Positions 9,373-33,961 of a stretch of DNA of 43,951 bases are shown here, piece by piece (positions within the stretch are counted from its first letter, which is position 1; the number at the start of each line of letters is the position of its first letter). The notes under the pieces were generated by a model. That model did no database searches, was not told the origin of the DNA, and was given only the letters and a program-made list of their open reading frames with translations. Origin of the DNA: Bacteroidia bacterium (GTDB lineage Bacteria > Bacteroidota > Bacteroidia > UKL13-3). The DNA lies in assembly GCA_049243005.1 (NCBI GenBank), contig JBMLOK010000424.1, positions 9,689 to 53,639 on the forward strand, given 5' to 3'. Position numbers and translations under genes: made by a program.

Positions 9373-10014
9373 ATGGAATTAATCGATTTTATTTTACATT
9401 TTGATAAACATCTTCAGGATTTTATCAATGCTTATGGAGTTTTAGTTTATGGATTATTGTTTCTGATTGTATTTATGGAAACAGGTTTAGTTGTAACTCC
9501 ATTTTTACCAGGTGATTCTTTACTTTTTGCCGCAGGTGCATTGGCTGCTAATCCTGTAAATGGATTAAATATCTTTTTGATAATTATTCTATTGATTTTA
9601 GCTGCTTTATGTGGTGATAACTCAAATTATTTTATTGGAAAGTTTTTAGCTAAAAAAGGTGAAGGAGCTAAGCTTTTCGGGATTTTTACCATTAGAAAAG
9701 ACTATTTAGACAAAACACATCAGTTTTATGAAAAACATGGTGCCCGTACTATTATAATTGCGCGTTTTGTGCCTATTGTTAGAACATTTGCTCCATTTGT
9801 TGCAGGTGTAGGAAACATGGATTACAAAAAATACATCAGTTTTTGTATTGGTGGTGCTATTTTATGGGTTACTTCAATTTCATTAGCAGGATATTTCTTT
9901 GGAAGTTTACCATGGATTCAGGCAAATTTTGAAAAGGTTGTTTTTGGCATCATTTTGGTATCTTTGGTTCCTGTTGCCATTGAATTTGTTAAACATAAAA
10001 GAGCAAGTAATTAG
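9373..10014 (+). CDS. DedA / VTT-domain inner-membrane protein
   Basis: 213 aa with the family motif FMETGLVVTPFLPGDSLLFAAGALA and multiple TM segments. Confidence 0.85.
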   Translation: MELIDFILHFDKHLQDFINAYGVLVYGLLFLIVFMETGLVVTPFLPGDSLLFAAGALAANPVNGLNIFLIIILLILAALCGDNSNYFIGKFLAKKGEGAKLFGIFTIRKDYLDKTHQFYEKHGARTIIIARFVPIVRTFAPFVAGVGNMDYKKYISFCIGGAILWVTSISLAGYFFGSLPWIQANFEKVVFGIILVSLVPVAIEFVKHKRASN

Positions 10015-10747
10015 GATTTTAATTTTTCAATTAATCCTTTTTAGTTTTCCTGTTTGGGTTTTTGCAGAAAAATCAGCAGGAAACTGTTCTATATATTTTG
10101 ATGTGGAAGGCGAACAAGTCGCTGAATTGTACCCAAATTCTTATTTCATAGCACATAATTTTAATGCACGTAAATCTAGAATCTTATTGGATTGTTGGGT
10201 GAAAAAAAATCAACAATACGATGGAATCAGATTGGAAAGAGGTGCATTACTATTTAATTCATCTTTAAAAAAGACAGGTAAAGTTATTCGACCATTTAAT
10301 CCAATGCGTGAATTGGAGTCGAATGATAGCATGGCACATATTCAAATTGTAGCTTTTATTGATAATGCTTCTATTGATCCGATTTCGGTGCCAGAATTGG
10401 AATTAGAGAAATTATTGGGTAGTGCGGGTCAAAATGAGAGGTTTTCCTATTTTGAAGAATACATCAAAAAATTTGGCTATTTTGAGCAAGAAAAGTACGA
10501 AAATTATGAAAGCTGGCTGATTCCAGAATTTGATTTTGTTACGCAAACTTATACCAACAGAATTCTGATGATTTTTTACAATAGAGAGCTAATTTCTATT
10601 TTTCATCACCGACCGGTTAAGGCAAAAGTTTATGATTCTATCGAAACTGGCGGCCGTTTTGGAATGATTTATAATTCTAAATTTTCTGAAAATTCAAAGG
10701 CTAAATTGATGGAAATTTATAAGAGAAAAATGATCATTTCTCATTAA
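9986..10747 (+). CDS. secreted hypothetical protein (start uncertain)
   Basis: The ORF is open from 9899, but that ATG overlaps DedA by 116 nt. In-frame TTG codons at 9974, 9980 and 9986 precede a signal-peptide-like stretch NIKEQVIRILIFQLILFSFPVWVFA. No family was recognised. Confidence 0.45.
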   Translation: MLNIKEQVIRILIFQLILFSFPVWVFAEKSAGNCSIYFDVEGEQVAELYPNSYFIAHNFNARKSRILLDCWVKKNQQYDGIRLERGALLFNSSLKKTGKVIRPFNPMRELESNDSMAHIQIVAFIDNASIDPISVPELELEKLLGSAGQNERFSYFEEYIKKFGYFEQEKYENYESWLIPEFDFVTQTYTNRILMIFYNRELISIFHHRPVKAKVYDSIETGGRFGMIYNSKFSENSKAKLMEIYKRKMIISH

Positions 10748-10972: not shown

Positions 10973-12349
10973 ATGGCGACTCATAAAAATAGTTTTAAAA
11001 TATTTATAGTAGAAGATGATACCTGGTATAGGAATTTCTTATCGTATTCGGTAGGATTAAATCCTGACTATGTAGTTGAGTCATTTGCTGATGGTAAAGA
11101 TTTTTTGGCCAACATTCATAAAAAGCCGGATTTAGTAACTGTTGATTACAGTTTACCAGGAATGAATGGTGCTGAATTAATCAAAAAAATCAAAGAGATT
11201 GATGACCAAATCCAAATTGTTGTAATTTCGGGTCAGGAAGACGTTGGTACAGCCGTAGAATTATTGAAGCTAGGTGTATTCGACTACATCATTAAAAATG
11301 AAGATACAAAACCTCGTTTACTCAATTCAATTTTTAATGCCCTTACCAATACCGAGCTAAGAACTGAAATTGATGAACTAAAAGAAGACCTTGGTAAAAA
11401 GTATGATTTCAGCAAAACAATTATTGGTAATAGTGATATCATAAAAAAGACCTTTTCATTAATCGAAAAGGCTGCCAGTAGCAAAATTACAGTATCAATA
11501 ACAGGAGAAACAGGAACAGGAAAAGAATTGGTAGCTAAGGCTATTCATTACCATAGCGAAAGGAAAAAAGCTGCTTTTGTTCCTGTGAATGTGGCTGCAA
11601 TTCCAAAGGATTTAATAGAAAGTGAATTGTTTGGACACGAAAAAGGTTCATTTACTGGTGCTGATGCCAGACGAATTGGGAAGTTTGAACAAGCAAATAA
11701 AGGAACTATATTTTTGGACGAAATTGGTGAGCTTGATTTAAGTTTACAGTCTAAATTATTACGTGTACTTCAAGAAAGAGAAGTTACAAGAGTGGGAGGA
11801 AATCAAACCCTTTCAATTGATGTAAGAGTGATAGTTGCCACTCATAAAAATCTTGCACAAGAAGTTCAGGAAGGAAGATTCAGAGAGGATTTGTACTATC
11901 GATTATTAGGTTTGCCTTTAGCTTTGCCTGCTTTAAGAGATAGAGGTCATGATATCATACACATATCAAAATCTTTTATTGATGAGTATTGCAGAGAAAA
12001 TAAGGTAAAGAAGTTGATTTTAAGTTCTGAAGCACAAAAGAAACTTTTGGATTATACTTATCCCGGAAACATTAGAGAGCTAAAAGCAATTATTGAATTG
12101 GCTTGTGTAATGTGTGATGATGGAGTAATTGAAGGGAAAGACATTACTTACAATTCAGAAAAATCAGTTTCGAATTTTTTAAGTAAGGAAATGACCCTTG
12201 ATGATTATAATAATTTAATCATTAAGAATTATCTTGAAAAATATGATGATAATGTTATAACAGTTGCCAAAAAACTGAATGTGGGTAAATCAACCATATA
12301 CAGAATTATGAAAACTGAAGAATTCCAAAACATTTATAAAAGCAAATAA
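10973..12349 (+). CDS. sigma-54-dependent response regulator (REC + AAA+ enhancer-binding domain + Fis-type HTH; NtrC family)
   Basis: 458 aa. Receiver domain (FIVEDD; [14 protein letters not shown]), Walker A GETGTGKE, sigma-54 contact loop [15 protein letters not shown], and C-terminal [20 protein letters not shown]. Confidence 0.9.
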
Positions 12350-12359
12350 TAAAATCTAT

Positions 12360-12740
12360 ATGAAAAAGACATTACTAGCCCTTGATGATGAAATCAGTAT
12401 CCTTAAAATTCTGGATTTCTATTTTGGAAAAACCTACAATGTTGTAGCAAAACAAAATGGAAAAGAAGCTTTAGAGTGGATGCAACAAGGCGTAATTCCT
12501 GATGTAATTGTGGCTGATATTAATATGCCTGAATTAAATGGAATTGAGTTTATTAAGCAAATTCGTTCTAGTGGATTTTTTAAAGATATTCCTTTAATTA
12601 TGTTATCAGGTAATGAAGGAAGTGCTGAGAAAATTAAGTGTCTAAAATCCGGTGCTGATGATTATTTAATTAAGCCATTCAATCCGGAAGAACTTGAAGC
12701 TCGAATTGATAATATTTTTCGTAGACTAAAAAAGGTTTAA
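12360..12740 (+). CDS. single-domain response regulator (CheY-like)
   Basis: 126 aa: LLALDDE, DVIVADINMPELNGIEF, LMLSG, YLIKPF. No output domain. Confidence 0.85.
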   Translation: MKKTLLALDDEISILKILDFYFGKTYNVVAKQNGKEALEWMQQGVIPDVIVADINMPELNGIEFIKQIRSSGFFKDIPLIMLSGNEGSAEKIKCLKSGADDYLIKPFNPEELEARIDNIFRRLKKV

Positions 12741-28294: not shown

Positions 28295-28335
28295 TTTTTT
28301 GTGTATTCTTGACGAATTTCTTATAATTTTACAAT

Positions 28336-28372
28336 AGCTGATTGATTTGTTTCAATCGGCTATTTGTTTGTT
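28336..28372 (+). terminator. candidate rho-independent terminator closing the EPS operon
   Basis: Stem AGCTGATTGA (28336-28345) and TCAATCGGCT (28352-28361) with one G-U pair and a 6-nt loop, followed by the T-rich ATTTGTTTGTT. Confidence 0.45.
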
Positions 28373-28516: not shown

Positions 28517-31500
28517 ATGAATAGCCTTGTAAAAACGAAAAAACTTATACTATTTCTAAGTTTCTTGATTCTATTTTTTACCAATACAGTTTTTGGACAG
28601 AATATTTTCTCAGGTGAGCCAGTTCAGGTAGTTGGTCAAATGAATTCCTATTCTACAACATCTGCATCTAATTCAAGTTATAGAAGAATTTCTGTTTCAA
28701 CAGGAACTCCTACAGATGGAAGAGGACAATGGGTAAAAACATATAATGTTCAATCAAGTGGTGGAGATTTTACTCCAAGAAACATGAGTGGTGGCGGGGG
28801 AAATGGCTTCTTGTTTATTTCCGGTCCTTCTTCAAACAGGTTTCAAAACAAATGGGTATTTTCAGGAACTTCTGTTGCTGCTTTAAATGCGATTAATAAT
28901 GTTTCGGCTTTTAATTCCGGTAACGATATGGGACTAAATATGAATACTGCCGGTAGATATACTTTTGTTTTTAATGATTGTGGATATACTGCAACAAATG
29001 CAAAGTTTTATATTGCTTATACTCAAAATGCTCCGGTTACTGTTACAAGAAATTCCGTTACTGTTAATCCTGATAGAAGCGCTACAGTTGCTATCTCAAG
29101 TTCCGATTCATTGTCACCAACAGAAAATATTTATGTAAGATATTCTACTGGTGCAAATTTTGCATCTACAGGAACAAGTGCAATTGTTCAGGCAAGTCCA
29201 ACAAATGCTCCAACCAATACAACTTGGACAGCTACTATTCCAACAACCGGTACAGTTAGCAGTACTATCAGATATTATGTTTTTACTTCAACACTAAGTT
29301 TAAGTGCTTTAAATTCATTAATCGAATTAGAAAAATCTTTGGCAGTTATTCGTATTGATGATAGCCTTGGTTTAAATTACCAATATACCTTTCCATCAAC
29401 ATTCACATCCGTACAAAGCGGAAATTTCAGTGATGCAGCAACTTGGGGAACTGCTTATGTAGCAGGAGGTAATTATGTTATTTCAAACGGACATACTGTT
29501 ACAATAGATGCAAATAGTTCAGTAAATACCATTCAAATCAATGCTGGTGGAACATTAGTTGGTGACAATGGCACTGCGAAAACCTTAACCATAGCAAGTG
29601 GAGGTAGTTTCAGTAATTCAGGAACCTATACTTCAAGTTCATTTAGTACAATAAGTTTTGCTGGCTCAGGAAGTATAACAGGAACAACCGCATTTGGAAA
29701 TGTAAGTATTGCAGGTGGCGTAGATTTTGGAAGCGGCTCAAGTATCAATCATAACTTAACACTTCAACCGGGTTCATTTATTCAAACCAATGCACCAACC
29801 TATAATTCAGGATCAACCTTAATTTATAATACAGGTGGCACTTATGGAAGAAGTTTAGAATGGAGTGCATCGAGTGGAGTTGCTTATCCTCACCATGTTC
29901 AAATAAGCGGTAATACAACCTTAAACTTAAAGGGTGGTAGTAATACTGCTCGCTTTATGGCTGGTAACCTAACAATAGATGCAGGTTCAGGATTAAGTCT
30001 ACAGGATTTGACTATTACTAATCCAACTGTAATCGGATTAACAGTAGGAGGTAATATCCTCAACAATGGAACTGTTAATATGGGAACATCAACAGAAAGA
30101 ATAGTTGCAGGTTCTTATACCAATTCAACAGGAGCAACCACAAGTTTGAGTTCATTAAGTGGAGGCGATTTAGAAATCACAGGAAACTTATTAGATAATG
30201 GAACATTCAATTCCAATTCAAGAGCAGTATTTTTTAGTGGCTCATCGGTTCAAGAAGTAAGTGGTTCAGGTACATTTAATATCGATTATATCGTATCGAA
30301 TAAAAGTGCTGGCAGTATAAGAATGATGTCTGATTTATTGTGTGAAGGTCCAAATGGAGGAAATGCCATCACCTTAAATAATGTAACAGATGAACTTGAT
30401 TTAAACGGATTTAATTTAACACTAGGGAAATCAGGAGTTACCTCAGGATTTAGTGGTTCGGGAAGTTTCATAGGAGATGCAAGTTCTAATTTAACGATAT
30501 TGGGAAATGGAAGTTTTGGAACAATTCGATTCAGTTCTGGTTCAGAAATTATTGATTCCCTAAATATGAACAGACAAAGTTCAGGCAATGTAAACTTGGG
30601 AAGTGATTTAAATATATCGGGAGCCTTGACACTAACACAAGGTAATCTTCAAGTATTATCGAATTATATTTTACGCTACTCAGGAAGTTCAATCAGCAGA
30701 ACAGGAGGAACCTTACAAATAGGCAATAGTGGCAATGAATTGATATTTGAGAACAGTAGCAATTTGGTATTACCTGCATCAATTTTCAATGGGAATATTC
30801 AAACGCTTCGCATCAATGGAACAGGAAGTTTAACCATAAGTTCTGCCATCAGTATCAATAATTATTTGGTATTAAATGGTGGAAATTTAATTGGAAGCAG
30901 CAGTAATAGTATCAGTTTATTAAATAGTTCAGATACATCCTTAAACAGAATAGGTGGATATATCGAAGGTTCATTAATCAGAAGAATTCCGGCAAGCAGT
31001 GCAGGAACAATCAGTTATTTGTATCCAATAGGAAAAGTAAGTTATAGTCCATTTGAGTTGGTAAATCCAATCACCACAAGTGGAGGAGTAGTTGATATAA
31101 AAGCAGAAGTATTTGAAACAAGTACAGGTGGAACAGCAGGTACAAATATGTTCAGCATTAGCAGCAATAGATATTGGGAAAGTTCAATTAGTTCAGGAGC
31201 AAGTAATTTCACAAGCACAAATATCAAACTAACAGAAGCTTCAATTGGAACCATGAATGCCATTGCTTTAAGTGCAACTTTAACTGGTGCTTATGCTAAA
31301 TCGAGTGAACTTAATCCAGTAGGAAATTCAATTACTACATCTTCAATAAGCAGTCTTGGATTTTGGGTTTTTGGAGAAGCAATTCCAACTCTTACATCCG
31401 TACAAAGTGGAAATTTCAGTGATGCAGCAACTTGGGGAACAGCATATGTAGCAGGAGGAAATTATATTATTTCAAACGGACATACTGTTACTGTAGATGC

Positions 31501-33961
31501 AAATAGTTCAATAAACACAATTCAAATCAATTCAGGTGGAACTTTAGTAGGTGACAATGGCACAGCTAAAACCTTAAGCATAGCAAACGGCGGTAGTTTC
31601 AGTAATTCTGGAACCTATACTTCAAGTTCATTTAGTACAATAAGTTTTGCTGGCTCAGGAAGTATAACAGGAACAACCGCATTTGGAAATGTAAGTATTG
31701 CAGGTGGCGTAGATTTTGGAAGCGGCTCAAGTATCAATCATAACTTAACACTTCAACCGGGTTCATTTATTCAAACCAATGCACCAACCTATAATTCAGG
31801 ATCAACCTTAATTTATAATACAGGTGGCACTTATGGAAGAAGTTTAGAATGGAGTGCATCGAGTGGAGTTGCTTATCCTCACCATGTTCAAATAAGCGGT
31901 AATACAACCTTAAACTTAAAGGGTGGTAGTAATACTGCTCGCTTTATGGCTGGTAACCTAACAATAGATGCAGGTTCAGGATTAAGTCTACAGGATTTGA
32001 CTATTACTAATCCAACTGTAATCGGATTAACAGTAGGAGGTAATATCCTCAACAATGGAACTGTTAATATGGGAACATCAACAGAAAGAATAGTTGCAGG
32101 TTCTTATACCAATTCAACAGGAGCAACCACAAGTTTGAGTTCATTAAGTGGAGGCGATTTAGAAATCACAGGAAACTTATTAGATAATGGAACATTCAAT
32201 TCCAATTCAAGAGCAGTATTTTTTAGTGGCTCATCGGTTCAAGAAGTAAGTGGTTCAGGTACATTTAATATCGATTATATCGTATCGAATAAAAGTGCTG
32301 GCAGTATAAGAATGATGTCTGATTTATTGTGTGAAGGTCCAAATGGAGGAAATGCCATCACCTTAAATAATGTAACAGATGAACTTGATTTAAACGGATT
32401 TAATTTAACACTAGGGAAATCAGGAGTTACCTCAGGATTTAGTGGTTCGGGAAGTTTCATAGGAGATGCAAGTTCTAATTTAACGATATTGGGAAATGGA
32501 AGTTTTGGAACAATTCGATTCAGTTCTGGTTCAGAAATTATTGATTCCCTAAATATGAACAGACAAAGTTCAGGCAATGTAAACTTGGGAAGTGATTTAA
32601 ATATATCGGGAGCCTTGACACTAACACAAGGTAATCTTCAAGTATTATCGAATTATATTTTACGCTACTCAGGAAGTTCAATCAGCAGAACAGGAGGAAC
32701 CTTACAAATAGGCAATAGTGGCAATGAATTGATATTTGAGAACAGTAGCAATTTGGTATTACCTGCATCAATTTTCAATGGGAATATTCAAACGCTTCGC
32801 ATCAATGGAACAGGAAGTTTAACCATAAGTTCTGCCATCAGTATCAATAATTATTTGGTATTAAATGGTGGAAATTTAATTGGAAGCAGCAGTAATAGTA
32901 TCAGTTTATTAAATAGTTCAGATACATCCTTAAACAGAATAGGTGGATATATCGAAGGTTCATTAATCAGAAGAATTCCGGCAAGCAGTGCAGGAACAAT
33001 CAGTTATTTGTATCCAATAGGAAAAGTAAGTTATAGTCCATTTGAGTTGGTAAATCCAATCACCACAAGTGGAGGAGTAGTTGATATAAAAGCAGAAGTA
33101 TTTGAAACAAGTACAGGTGGAACAGCAGGTACAAATATGTTCAGCATTAGCAGCAATAGATATTGGGAAAGTTCAATTAGTTCAGGAGCAAGTAATTTCA
33201 CAAGCACAAATATCAAACTAACAGAAGCTTCAATTGGAACCATGAATGCCATTGCTAGAAGTGCAACTTTAACTGGTGCATATAGCAAAGCAAATACGAG
33301 CGCTGCAAGTGGAAGTTCTATTACAAGTAATTCTTTGACTTCATTAGGATACTTTTTATTTGGAGTAGATTCTTCTTCATTAAGTTCATCGGCAACATTA
33401 AATATAACTGCATTTTTAGAAGGCTTGTATTTAGGTTCCTCAAGCATGACAGCCTCACCGTTTAATGCTGATGGAGTTACCTCGAATTCAATTGCAGATA
33501 CAATAACAATTATTCTACATGACAAAAATAATTTTGATAGTATTTATGCAGTTAGTGGTACCATCAGCACATCCGGATTAGCAAGTTTATCACTGCCTTC
33601 ACTTTATATAGGAAATGCATATTATATAGCCATTAAACATAGAAACTCATTAGAAACATGGACAGCTGATACAGTAGTAATTACATCAACTACTAGTTAT
33701 AATTTTTCAGATGATGCGCTTAAAGCTTATGGCTCTAATTTAATTAATTTAGGTTCAGGTGTATTTGGAATTTATTCAGGAGATATCAATCAAGATGGTT
33801 CAATAGATTTTCTTGATTATCCAGATTTGGATATAGGTTCTCTTAATGGTGATTTAGGTTATTTGAACACTGATTTAAATGGGGATGCTTCCGTCGATTT
33901 TCTCGATTATCCAATAATTGATTTAAATTCTATAAACGGTGTTTTTTTAATGAGGCCATAG
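28517..33961 (+). CDS. giant secreted beta-helix-like surface protein with two 663-aa tandem modules and a dockerin-like C-terminal module
   Basis: 1,814 aa with Sec signal MNSLVKTKKLILFLSFLILFFTNTVFG|Q. The modules are G/S/N/T-rich and open with SGNFSDAATWGTAYVAGGNY.ISNGHTVT.DANS, a typical parallel beta-helix cap-like opening. The C-terminus carries GDINQDGSIDFLDY and DLNGDASVDFLDY. Confidence 0.85.
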   Translation: MNSLVKTKKLILFLSFLILFFTNTVFGQNIFSGEPVQVVGQMNSYSTTSASNSSYRRISVSTGTPTDGRGQWVKTYNVQSSGGDFTPRNMSGGGGNGFLFISGPSSNRFQNKWVFSGTSVAALNAINNVSAFNSGNDMGLNMNTAGRYTFVFNDCGYTATNAKFYIAYTQNAPVTVTRNSVTVNPDRSATVAISSSDSLSPTENIYVRYSTGANFASTGTSAIVQASPTNAPTNTTWTATIPTTGTVSSTIRYYVFTSTLSLSALNSLIELEKSLAVIRIDDSLGLNYQYTFPSTFTSVQSGNFSDAATWGTAYVAGGNYVISNGHTVTIDANSSVNTIQINAGGTLVGDNGTAKTLTIASGGSFSNSGTYTSSSFSTISFAGSGSITGTTAFGNVSIAGGVDFGSGSSINHNLTLQPGSFIQTNAPTYNSGSTLIYNTGGTYGRSLEWSASSGVAYPHHVQISGNTTLNLKGGSNTARFMAGNLTIDAGSGLSLQDLTITNPTVIGLTVGGNILNNGTVNMGTSTERIVAGSYTNSTGATTSLSSLSGGDLEITGNLLDNGTFNSNSRAVFFSGSSVQEVSGSGTFNIDYIVSNKSAGSIRMMSDLLCEGPNGGNAITLNNVTDELDLNGFNLTLGKSGVTSGFSGSGSFIGDASSNLTILGNGSFGTIRFSSGSEIIDSLNMNRQSSGNVNLGSDLNISGALTLTQGNLQVLSNYILRYSGSSISRTGGTLQIGNSGNELIFENSSNLVLPASIFNGNIQTLRINGTGSLTISSAISINNYLVLNGGNLIGSSSNSISLLNSSDTSLNRIGGYIEGSLIRRIPASSAGTISYLYPIGKVSYSPFELVNPITTSGGVVDIKAEVFETSTGGTAGTNMFSISSNRYWESSISSGASNFTSTNIKLTEASIGTMNAIALSATLTGAYAKSSELNPVGNSITTSSISSLGFWVFGEAIPTLTSVQSGNFSDAATWGTAYVAGGNYIISNGHTVTVDANSSINTIQINSGGTLVGDNGTAKTLSIANGGSFSNSGTYTSSSFSTISFAGSGSITGTTAFGNVSIAGGVDFGSGSSINHNLTLQPGSFIQTNAPTYNSGSTLIYNTGGTYGRSLEWSASSGVAYPHHVQISGNTTLNLKGGSNTARFMAGNLTIDAGSGLSLQDLTITNPTVIGLTVGGNILNNGTVNMGTSTERIVAGSYTNSTGATTSLSSLSGGDLEITGNLLDNGTFNSNSRAVFFSGSSVQEVSGSGTFNIDYIVSNKSAGSIRMMSDLLCEGPNGGNAITLNNVTDELDLNGFNLTLGKSGVTSGFSGSGSFIGDASSNLTILGNGSFGTIRFSSGSEIIDSLNMNRQSSGNVNLGSDLNISGALTLTQGNLQVLSNYILRYSGSSISRTGGTLQIGNSGNELIFENSSNLVLPASIFNGNIQTLRINGTGSLTISSAISINNYLVLNGGNLIGSSSNSISLLNSSDTSLNRIGGYIEGSLIRRIPASSAGTISYLYPIGKVSYSPFELVNPITTSGGVVDIKAEVFETSTGGTAGTNMFSISSNRYWESSISSGASNFTSTNIKLTEASIGTMNAIARSATLTGAYSKANTSAASGSSITSNSLTSLGYFLFGVDSSSLSSSATLNITAFLEGLYLGSSSMTASPFNADGVTSNSIADTITIILHDKNNFDSIYAVSGTISTSGLASLSLPSLYIGNAYYIAIKHRNSLETWTADTVVITSTTSYNFSDDALKAYGSNLINLGSGVFGIYSGDINQDGSIDFLDYPDLDIGSLNGDLGYLNTDLNGDASVDFLDYPIIDLNSINGVFLMRP
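29405..33382 (+). repeat. in-frame tandem direct repeat, 2 x 1,989 bp
   Basis: Unit 1 is 29405-31393 and unit 2 is 31394-33382. The core 29621-31267 is identical to 31610-33256 by eye (several lines spot-checked base by base, and the translations match). The edges are diverged. Confidence 0.9.

Follow-up and report, generated by a model that had tools for sequence, protein, structure and literature searches.

Duplicated bacterial genes such as tufA/tufB and the rRNA operons undergo concerted evolution by gene conversion, and in adhesins of the Hia/Hsf type modules have been multiplied in frame. Among surface proteins, the Periscope proteins (SasG/Aap, Rib/alpha C and Sgo_0707 with its SHIRT repeats) carry near-identical tandem repeats whose number varies via intragenic recombination (PMC8201768), and in-frame rearrangement between large direct repeats is reported for CagY (PMC2194252). 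Here we describe a gene for a modular protein of 1,814 amino acids (aa), predicted to be secreted, in a stretch of 43,951 nucleotides (nt) from a Bacteroidia bacterium (GenBank assembly GCA_049243005.1, contig JBMLOK010000424.1, positions 9,689 to 53,639), hereafter called the window. The gene contains a 663-codon unit twice in tandem, and an earlier note on this DNA, made from the letters alone, had described a duplication with a base-perfect core and diverged edges. Our analysis makes it likely that the cores of the two units evolve in concert by recombination between them; copies within a genome were closer to each other than to their orthologues, while the edge kept its positional orthology.

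Structure of the tandem duplication

The two units (Table 1) follow each other at an offset of exactly 1,989 nt. Comparing them gave 76 differences, 21 in the 5' edge and 55 in the 3' edge. An exact alignment of unit 1 against unit 2 placed no substitution in the 1,647 nt of core between these edges, bearing out what had been read by eye. The probability of 76 differences all missing one given block of 1,647 nt is ~1e-58. Self-identity at an offset of 1,989 nt fell to background (about 0.2-0.4) directly beyond 29397-31393.

After translation, 28 of the 663 residues differ between the units. Their longest identical run is 556 aa, more than the 549 aa that the perfect DNA tract encodes (the length given in the note), because the flanking changes are synonymous. 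Divergence was calculated separately by part, as had been proposed. The 5' edges are 9.7% diverged between units, with 15 synonymous and 6 non-synonymous changes in 216 nt, in line with the count of about 20 differences in the first ~215 nt, roughly two thirds of them synonymous. The synonymous divergence (dS) of this edge is 0.37 and the ratio of non-synonymous to synonymous divergence (dN/dS) is 0.10. The 3' edges reach 44% divergence, with dS of about 1.0 and dN/dS of 0.56, and 20 of the final 42 aa are identical, agreeing with the estimate of about half identity at the protein level over the last ~125 nt.

Related loci and the age of the duplication

The comparison set consisted of 13 related loci at the same genomic position, obtained from a homology search and its follow-ups; the labels L001-L027 denote loci of related assemblies. 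Two units were observed in the window and in eight of these loci. Six are complete (L001, L002, L003, L006, L026, L027), L008 is the same record as L003, and L007 breaks off within unit 2, where its contig ends, the gene continuing in L009. All two-unit loci, L003 included, have in common the period of 1,989 nt and the junction FGE(A/S)IP(TL/SF) followed by TS(V/L/I)Q. Because period and junction are shared down to ~79% flank identity, in L003, the sequences point to a single old tandem duplication before the split of the sampled lineages; the earlier note had likewise supposed an old duplication. The units of L001, L006 and L007 differ throughout (about 5%, 6% and 11%, with longest perfect runs of 144, 71 and 122 nt, respectively), and the duplication is therefore no assembly artifact and predates the lineage split.

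We found dN/dS of 0.07-0.14 in the 5' edge and the core, whether units or orthologues were compared, and also in the 3' edge of orthologues. These values of ~0.1 support the purifying selection on the module that had been proposed; only the between-unit comparison of the 3' edge gave higher values (0.28-0.56). Two other ways of obtaining identical cores, a fresh independent duplication in the window lineage or selection alone, have nothing in their favor beyond the identity itself. A fresh duplication would give a fully identical unit and a new junction, whereas the edges are diverged and the junction is shared with distant lineages. Selection alone cannot erase synonymous differences, and dS between orthologous cores ranges from 0.27 to 1.2. 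Both were rejected on these grounds, and we give them almost no credence.

Evidence for concerted evolution of the core

In distance matrices and trees the core grouped by genome, while the 3' edge grouped by unit position across species. Over the 3' edge (last 126 nt) the unit-1 copies of the window, L001, L002, L006 and L007 were 5-22% apart and the unit-2 copies of the window, L001 and L006 were 8-10% apart, compared with 42-48% between unit 1 and unit 2. The unit-1 3' edge of the window clustered with the unit-1 edges of L001, L002, L006, L007, L026 and L027, and its unit-2 3' edge with the unit-2 edges of L001, L006, L026 and L027 plus the single unit of L024.

Perfect tracts were observed in five loci, each with different borders. 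In unit coordinates these span 217-1863 in the window (1,647 nt), about 1-1815 in L002 (1,817 nt), 61-1941 in L003 (1,881 nt), 1-1814 in L026 (1,816 nt) and 1-1574 in L027 (1,574 nt). Together with the grouping of the core by genome, they uphold the earlier claim that the center was recently homogenized. Core substitutions between strains were present in both units in every case (16/16, 29/29 and 15/15 for the L002, L026 and L027 pairs), as were the substitutions separating the window from L002 (174/174). For L001 and L006 together, we counted 16 position-specific and 17 'crossed' sites in the core and 46 position-specific sites in the 3' edge; the core has therefore passed from unit to unit in every lineage, unlike the 3' edge. 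With so few position-specific core sites (16, against 17 crossed), neither unit stands out as the donor of the window core.

Private alleles were found in both copies of the window 5' edge, which therefore escaped conversion in the window lineage. Judged by dS (0.37 between units, 0.5 between orthologues), this edge has stayed unconverted roughly since the window and L001 separated. The 5' edge was homogenized in L002, L026 and L027.

A 3' part of L002 of ~600 nt (about 14670-15270 in L002 and about 33190-33790 in the window) is 93-98% identical to L004. L004 is otherwise about 75% identical, and the flanks of L002 are window-like; on these identities, the patch is an exchange between species-level lineages. 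The 3' edge is hypervariable and has also been replaced by recombination between lineages, and its divergence is no simple date for the duplication. Import of foreign alleles into one unit from other lineages is thus another conceivable origin of the diverged edges, in place of remnants of old divergence between the copies, and both the L002 patch and the conflict between dockerin-like tail types and flank tree (see below) speak for it. However, the unit-1 and unit-2 3' edges are each kept by position across five to seven lineages, and this, like the private alleles in both copies of the window 5' edge, fits long independent evolution in place. We consider foreign import a distinctly unlikely source of the edges, and we continue to read them as old divergence that escaped recombination between the units.

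Variation in unit number

A single unit was observed in L004, L005, L025 and L024, with L025 and L005 belonging to the same species; comparing unit number in relatives supports the variable copy number suggested in the note. The DNA of the flanks gave the tree ((L007,(L002, L024,(window,(L001,L006)))),(L003,L025)). Measured from the window, the close group lies at a distance of 6-8%, L007 at 12.5%, and L003 and L025 at about 21%. The variation in unit number lies between lineages with 79-95% identical flanks and not between strains, with assembly collapse being possible. L005 (with a MEGAHIT-style name) and L025 (from Logan) are independent assemblies of one lineage, and both have one unit without a break. 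Their lineage is sister to the two-unit L003, whose junction matches that of the window's clade, and the one-unit L024 is nested among two-unit lineages. Because L024 lies within a two-unit clade, more than one change of module number is probable. The simplest reading of the tree would be that a unit was lost at least twice, or that recombination between lineages carried the duplicated allele from one to another.

The one-unit gene of L024 has a frameshift in its N-terminal domain after ...NKWVF (L024 about 9720-10100), reflecting either a pseudogene or a sequencing error. A scan of metagenome contigs returned two distant loci only and no new close relatives. The distant homologues L011-L022 were rejected as a guide to the ancestral unit number, as they occupy another genomic locus.

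Proposed recombination routes and possible assembly effects

Recombination between direct repeats is of the RecA type and depends on identity. We propose that the 663-codon module was duplicated once, in tandem and in frame, before the sampled lineages split, and that the copies would since have recombined repeatedly by intragenic gene conversion and unequal crossing-over, both forms of ordinary homologous recombination. In the window lineage the latest event, or ongoing frequent events, would have homogenized 1,647 nt by non-reciprocal conversion, one core being copied onto the other. The right border of the tract would fall where the 3' edges are too unlike (44%) to pair, and the left border inside a stretch still about 10% diverged. 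If the units took part in an unequal crossover, one of them would be lost, in keeping with the one-unit genes of related lineages. The machinery behind the recombination, a cell-surface location of the protein and a role of module number in its function are inferred.

Several points weigh against this proposal. A de Bruijn graph holds a perfect core once, differences can be removed from it as bubbles, and the number of passes through the loop is estimated from coverage. In such assemblies a collapsed repeat can be walked twice and small differences between copies lost, which is a general problem (PMC6868369). L003 has a SPAdes-style name and 5x coverage, yet its perfect repeat of 1,881 nt was spanned, and the presence of all between-strain core substitutions in both units is also expected from a collapsed edge. 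In principle, the one-unit contigs could also have arisen by collapse during assembly. Among the 13 loci and the cluster members with listed lengths there was no three-unit gene, and gene conversion and cycles of unequal crossing-over are inseparable from sequence alone.

The assembly points suggest an explanation in which the two units are real but the exact identity of their cores, and maybe the unit number, was made by a short-read assembler; near-identical copies would have been collapsed to one graph edge, small differences dropped and the loop walked a guessed number of times. The break of the gene inside unit 2 in the CCAP1403_21 metagenome-assembled genome (MAG), divided between L007 and L009 with about 260 nt absent if there are two units, also fits such an effect. 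No conversion tract was inferred from this break, as L009 starts at unit position 1408 and is already unlike unit 1 there. However, assemblers kept apart copies that are 5-11% diverged (L001, L006, L007), and the window cores are therefore far more alike than their own 5' edges, so that homogenization is real even if below 100%. Because the window has the junction and two distinct 5' edges, at least two units are present. The same pattern of shared substitutions is predicted if conversion is far more frequent than mutation, which counts against an origin in assembly. Overall we consider an assembly effect unlikely as the explanation of the identical cores. 'Base-perfect' may nevertheless stand for 'nearly identical', the unit number is two at the least, and the shared-substitution pattern could come partly from collapse; the earlier warning of possible mis-assembly stands for exact identity and copy number alike.

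Cycles of unequal crossing-over (to three units, then back to two) offer another route by which the center could have been homogenized, instead of non-reciprocal conversion. The one-unit alleles demonstrate that changes of unit number happen at this locus, and diverged outer edges are expected for tandem arrays homogenized by crossover. Such cycles would pass through three-unit alleles, of which the compared loci and the cluster members with listed lengths had none, and the exchanges in L001 and L006 are short patches that better fit conversion tracts. We regard homogenization by crossover cycles in place of conversion as unlikely, and recombination between the two units remains our preferred reading.

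Predicted fold and C-terminal domain

No Pfam or NCBIfam family was found above threshold for the 1,814-aa protein. In an AlphaFold2 model of residues 1-959, the region from about 300 to 800 was confident and showed the short regular strands of a beta-solenoid, while the last 140 residues of the unit (822-959) had a predicted local distance difference test score (pLDDT) below 50. The prediction for the module is thus a beta-solenoid spanning about 500 residues, after which some 150 residues are poorly modelled. Foldseek searches gave autotransporter beta-helix passengers (Ag43, EspC, Hbp, SepA) as the best matches of residues ~300-800, with E >= 0.015; neither of the two AlphaFold2 models had a match at E <= 0.001, and a PDB sequence search with the whole protein returned nothing significant. 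We treat the beta-helix and pilin-like resemblances of the models as leads only.

The first ~430 aa of the unit (window 29405-30700) had 1,210 matches at E <= 0.001 among 1.84 billion representative proteins, including 853 at E <= 1e-10. Many of these homologues are proteins of 1,000-5,000 aa with several copies of the block. No Pfam or NCBIfam model covers it, and faint matches to G8 (PF10162) and PATR (PF12951) were observed in some relatives only. Some relatives are annotated as 'autotransporter-associated beta strand protein' or bear PF12951.

The C-terminal domain was modelled as a beta-sandwich followed by short helices (pLDDT about 80-90). Each of its two calcium-loop motif segments has 74 nt (33782-33855 and 33872-33945), and their spacing is 90 nt. 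A profile of this domain from 11 homologues matched solved dockerins with E values of 1.6e-4 to 0.03, and PF00404 matched 10 of the 11 members below threshold (11.1-15.5 bits, cutoff 22.9). From these matches the C-terminus appears dockerin-like, the dockerin assignment itself being sub-threshold.

Sorting domains of the type IX secretion system (T9SS; PF18962/TIGR04183 type) gave no match in Pfam or NCBIfam at E <= 1 with the whole protein, nor with the C-terminal 192 aa at E <= 1 (Pfam) or E <= 0.01 (NCBIfam); PF18962 is present in most remote homologues. Identity as T9SS cargo by the usual criterion was rejected, the sorting domain being absent. No lipobox was found in the protein. The translocator beta-barrel of type V autotransporters had no Pfam or NCBIfam match, and the model of the C-terminus shows a beta-sandwich and short helices; identity as an autotransporter was rejected for want of a C-terminal beta-barrel translocator.

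Two sequence types of the dockerin-like tail (window 33791-33958) were observed, GSIDFLDYPDLD... and GFIDGNDFTDVD..., and their spread conflicts with the flank tree. One type is shared by the window, L002, L003, L004, L027 and L010, and the other by L001, L006, L005, L025, L009, L024 and L026. A second gene, lying a few kb downstream in distant relatives, has the same C-terminal domain at its end, with 54-55% identity (L011 19872-20441; L013 19869-20438; L017 9652-10221). Together these genes suggest that the domain is a shared sorting or anchoring module.

Gene organization and genomic neighborhood

The protein was called a surface protein in the earlier note; every other detail of the note was borne out, while secretion is predicted and a cell-surface location putative. 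The mature start QNIF(S/Y)GEP is kept in homologues. The N-terminal domain occurs at the start of many otherwise different proteins with 50-68% identity, most of which bear a T9SS tail, and its AlphaFold2 model is beta-rich with only partial confidence. The antisense open reading frames (ORFs) of 100 aa both exist and are identical by construction because they lie inside the perfect tract; we regard them as shadows of the repeat, with no sign of being genes.

A polysaccharide cluster precedes the gene on the same strand. It contains an initiating sugar transferase, an OEP-type outer-membrane protein (PF02321), a chain-length determinant-like protein, a Wzx-type flippase, a Wzy-type polymerase, five glycosyltransferases and one methyltransferase. 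Because a terminator-like hairpin intervenes, the sequence suggests that the 1,814-aa gene is transcribed separately from the cluster. On its 3' side, genes for AhpC, an M23 peptidase, an FAA hydrolase and an M3 peptidase lie on the opposite strand. A sigma-54-dependent response regulator and a stand-alone receiver protein head the polysaccharide cluster (window 10973-12740) and are possible regulators of it. Two + strand ORFs overlap within 9373-10747 of the window; 9373-10014 has a VTT/DedA domain and 9899-10747 is without a family. The latter may not be a real gene, or a frameshift may be present. The G+C content of the window is 33%.

By their record titles, the related records are Bacteroidia MAGs from lakes, ponds and cyanobacterial cultures. 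Two clearly Bacteroidia contigs bear the titles 'Vulcanococcus limneticus' (L006) and 'Chitinophaga pinensis' (L011). These titles and the CCAP1403_21 MAG (L007, L009) suggest that some of these bacteria were recovered from cyanobacterial cultures.

Table 1. Features of the duplicated gene and its surroundings, in window coordinates.
Feature	Position	Strand	Basis or remarks
Gene for modular protein (predicted secreted), 1,814 aa	28517-33961	+	ORF call and translation; signal peptide, N-terminal domain, two 663-aa modules, C-terminal domain
Sec signal peptide, predicted (MNSLVKTKKLILFLSFLILFFTNTVFG, then QNIF)	28517-28597	+	Read by eye from translation
N-terminal domain, ~270 aa, residues 28-296, single copy	28598-29404	+	Homology; AlphaFold2
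Unit 1, 663 codons, residues 297-959	29405-31393	+	
5' edge of unit 1	29405-29620	+	21/216 nt unlike unit-2 5' edge (31394-31609)
Perfect tract copy 1, 1,647 nt	29621-31267	+	
3' edge of unit 1	31268-31393	+	Ends in duplication junction GEAIPTL (31373-31393)
Unit 2, 663 codons, residues 960-1622	31394-33382	+	
Perfect tract copy 2, 1,647 nt	31610-33256	+	Equal to copy 1 without mismatch
3' edge of unit 2	33257-33382	+	Runs into C-terminal domain
C-terminal domain, 192 aa, residues 1623-1814	33383-33958	+	Beta-sandwich, then dockerin-like pair of calcium-loop motifs (about 33779-33945)
Terminator-like hairpin	28333-28364	+	Between last glycosyltransferase gene and 1,814-aa gene; consensus match only
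Antisense ORF, 100 aa	30286-30588	-	Twin at 32275-32577

Discussion

Read as concerted evolution by gene conversion, the gene is a standard, ordinary case of a phenomenon already known. Its related loci provide a natural series in uncultured freshwater Bacteroidia, from an old duplication through repeated homogenization and escape of an edge to the probable loss of a unit. In practical terms, the copy number and exact sequence of such a gene are not to be trusted from short-read assemblies. Two unannotated building blocks also emerged, the ~430-aa module with >1,200 representative homologues and no Pfam model, and the conserved C-terminal domain with its dockerin-like end; neither changes the current view of repeat evolution in secreted proteins.

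A bolder interpretation takes the one- and two-module forms as a switch, driven by recombination and under selection, that alters how far a beta-solenoid adhesin reaches or its valency; in cyanobacteria-associated Bacteroidia this adhesin would be displayed via a dockerin-like anchor and not a T9SS tail. We hold this to be very unlikely. If true, conversion would maintain the identity of the modules and with it the capacity to switch, and the protein would be of the Periscope type with an exceptionally large repeat (663 aa) and an unrecognized display route in Bacteroidota.

Of the classes described so far, the Periscope proteins come closest. With them the protein described here shares predicted secretion, tandem repeats with high DNA identity, a repeat number that differs between relatives, a non-repeated N-terminal domain, a putative C-terminal attachment region and a proposed role for intragenic recombination. 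In Periscope proteins the repeats build a rigid, elongated stalk carrying a functional N-terminal domain; for the protein here such a stalk is putative, the confident beta-solenoid-like stretch covering residues ~300-800 and residues 822-959 being below pLDDT 50. Long identical DNA repeats were found, though in only two copies, and repeat number varied between lineages as one versus two units. The differences lie in the size of the repeat, with one or two units of 663 aa here and classical repeats of about 80-130 aa, and in its fold, the unit being a predicted beta-solenoid plus a further region and not a small globular stalk domain. In addition, the variation here is between species-level lineages, and the host is an uncultured Gram-negative Bacteroidia bacterium.

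The autotransporter passengers Ag43, Hbp, EspC and SepA resemble residues ~300-800 as the best, non-significant fold matches; they differ in that the protein here ends in a beta-sandwich and a dockerin-like module, with no search matching a translocator barrel. Hia/Hsf and CagY share with it in-frame recombination between large direct repeats that yields protein forms with different module numbers, but they have no sequence or secretion-system kinship with the protein here. In tufA/tufB and the rRNA operons, as in this gene, copies within a genome are more alike than orthologues, tract borders vary, and sequences escape once divergence blocks pairing. What distinguishes this gene from them is that the copies are adjacent modules in one reading frame, so that recombination can alter the length of the protein.

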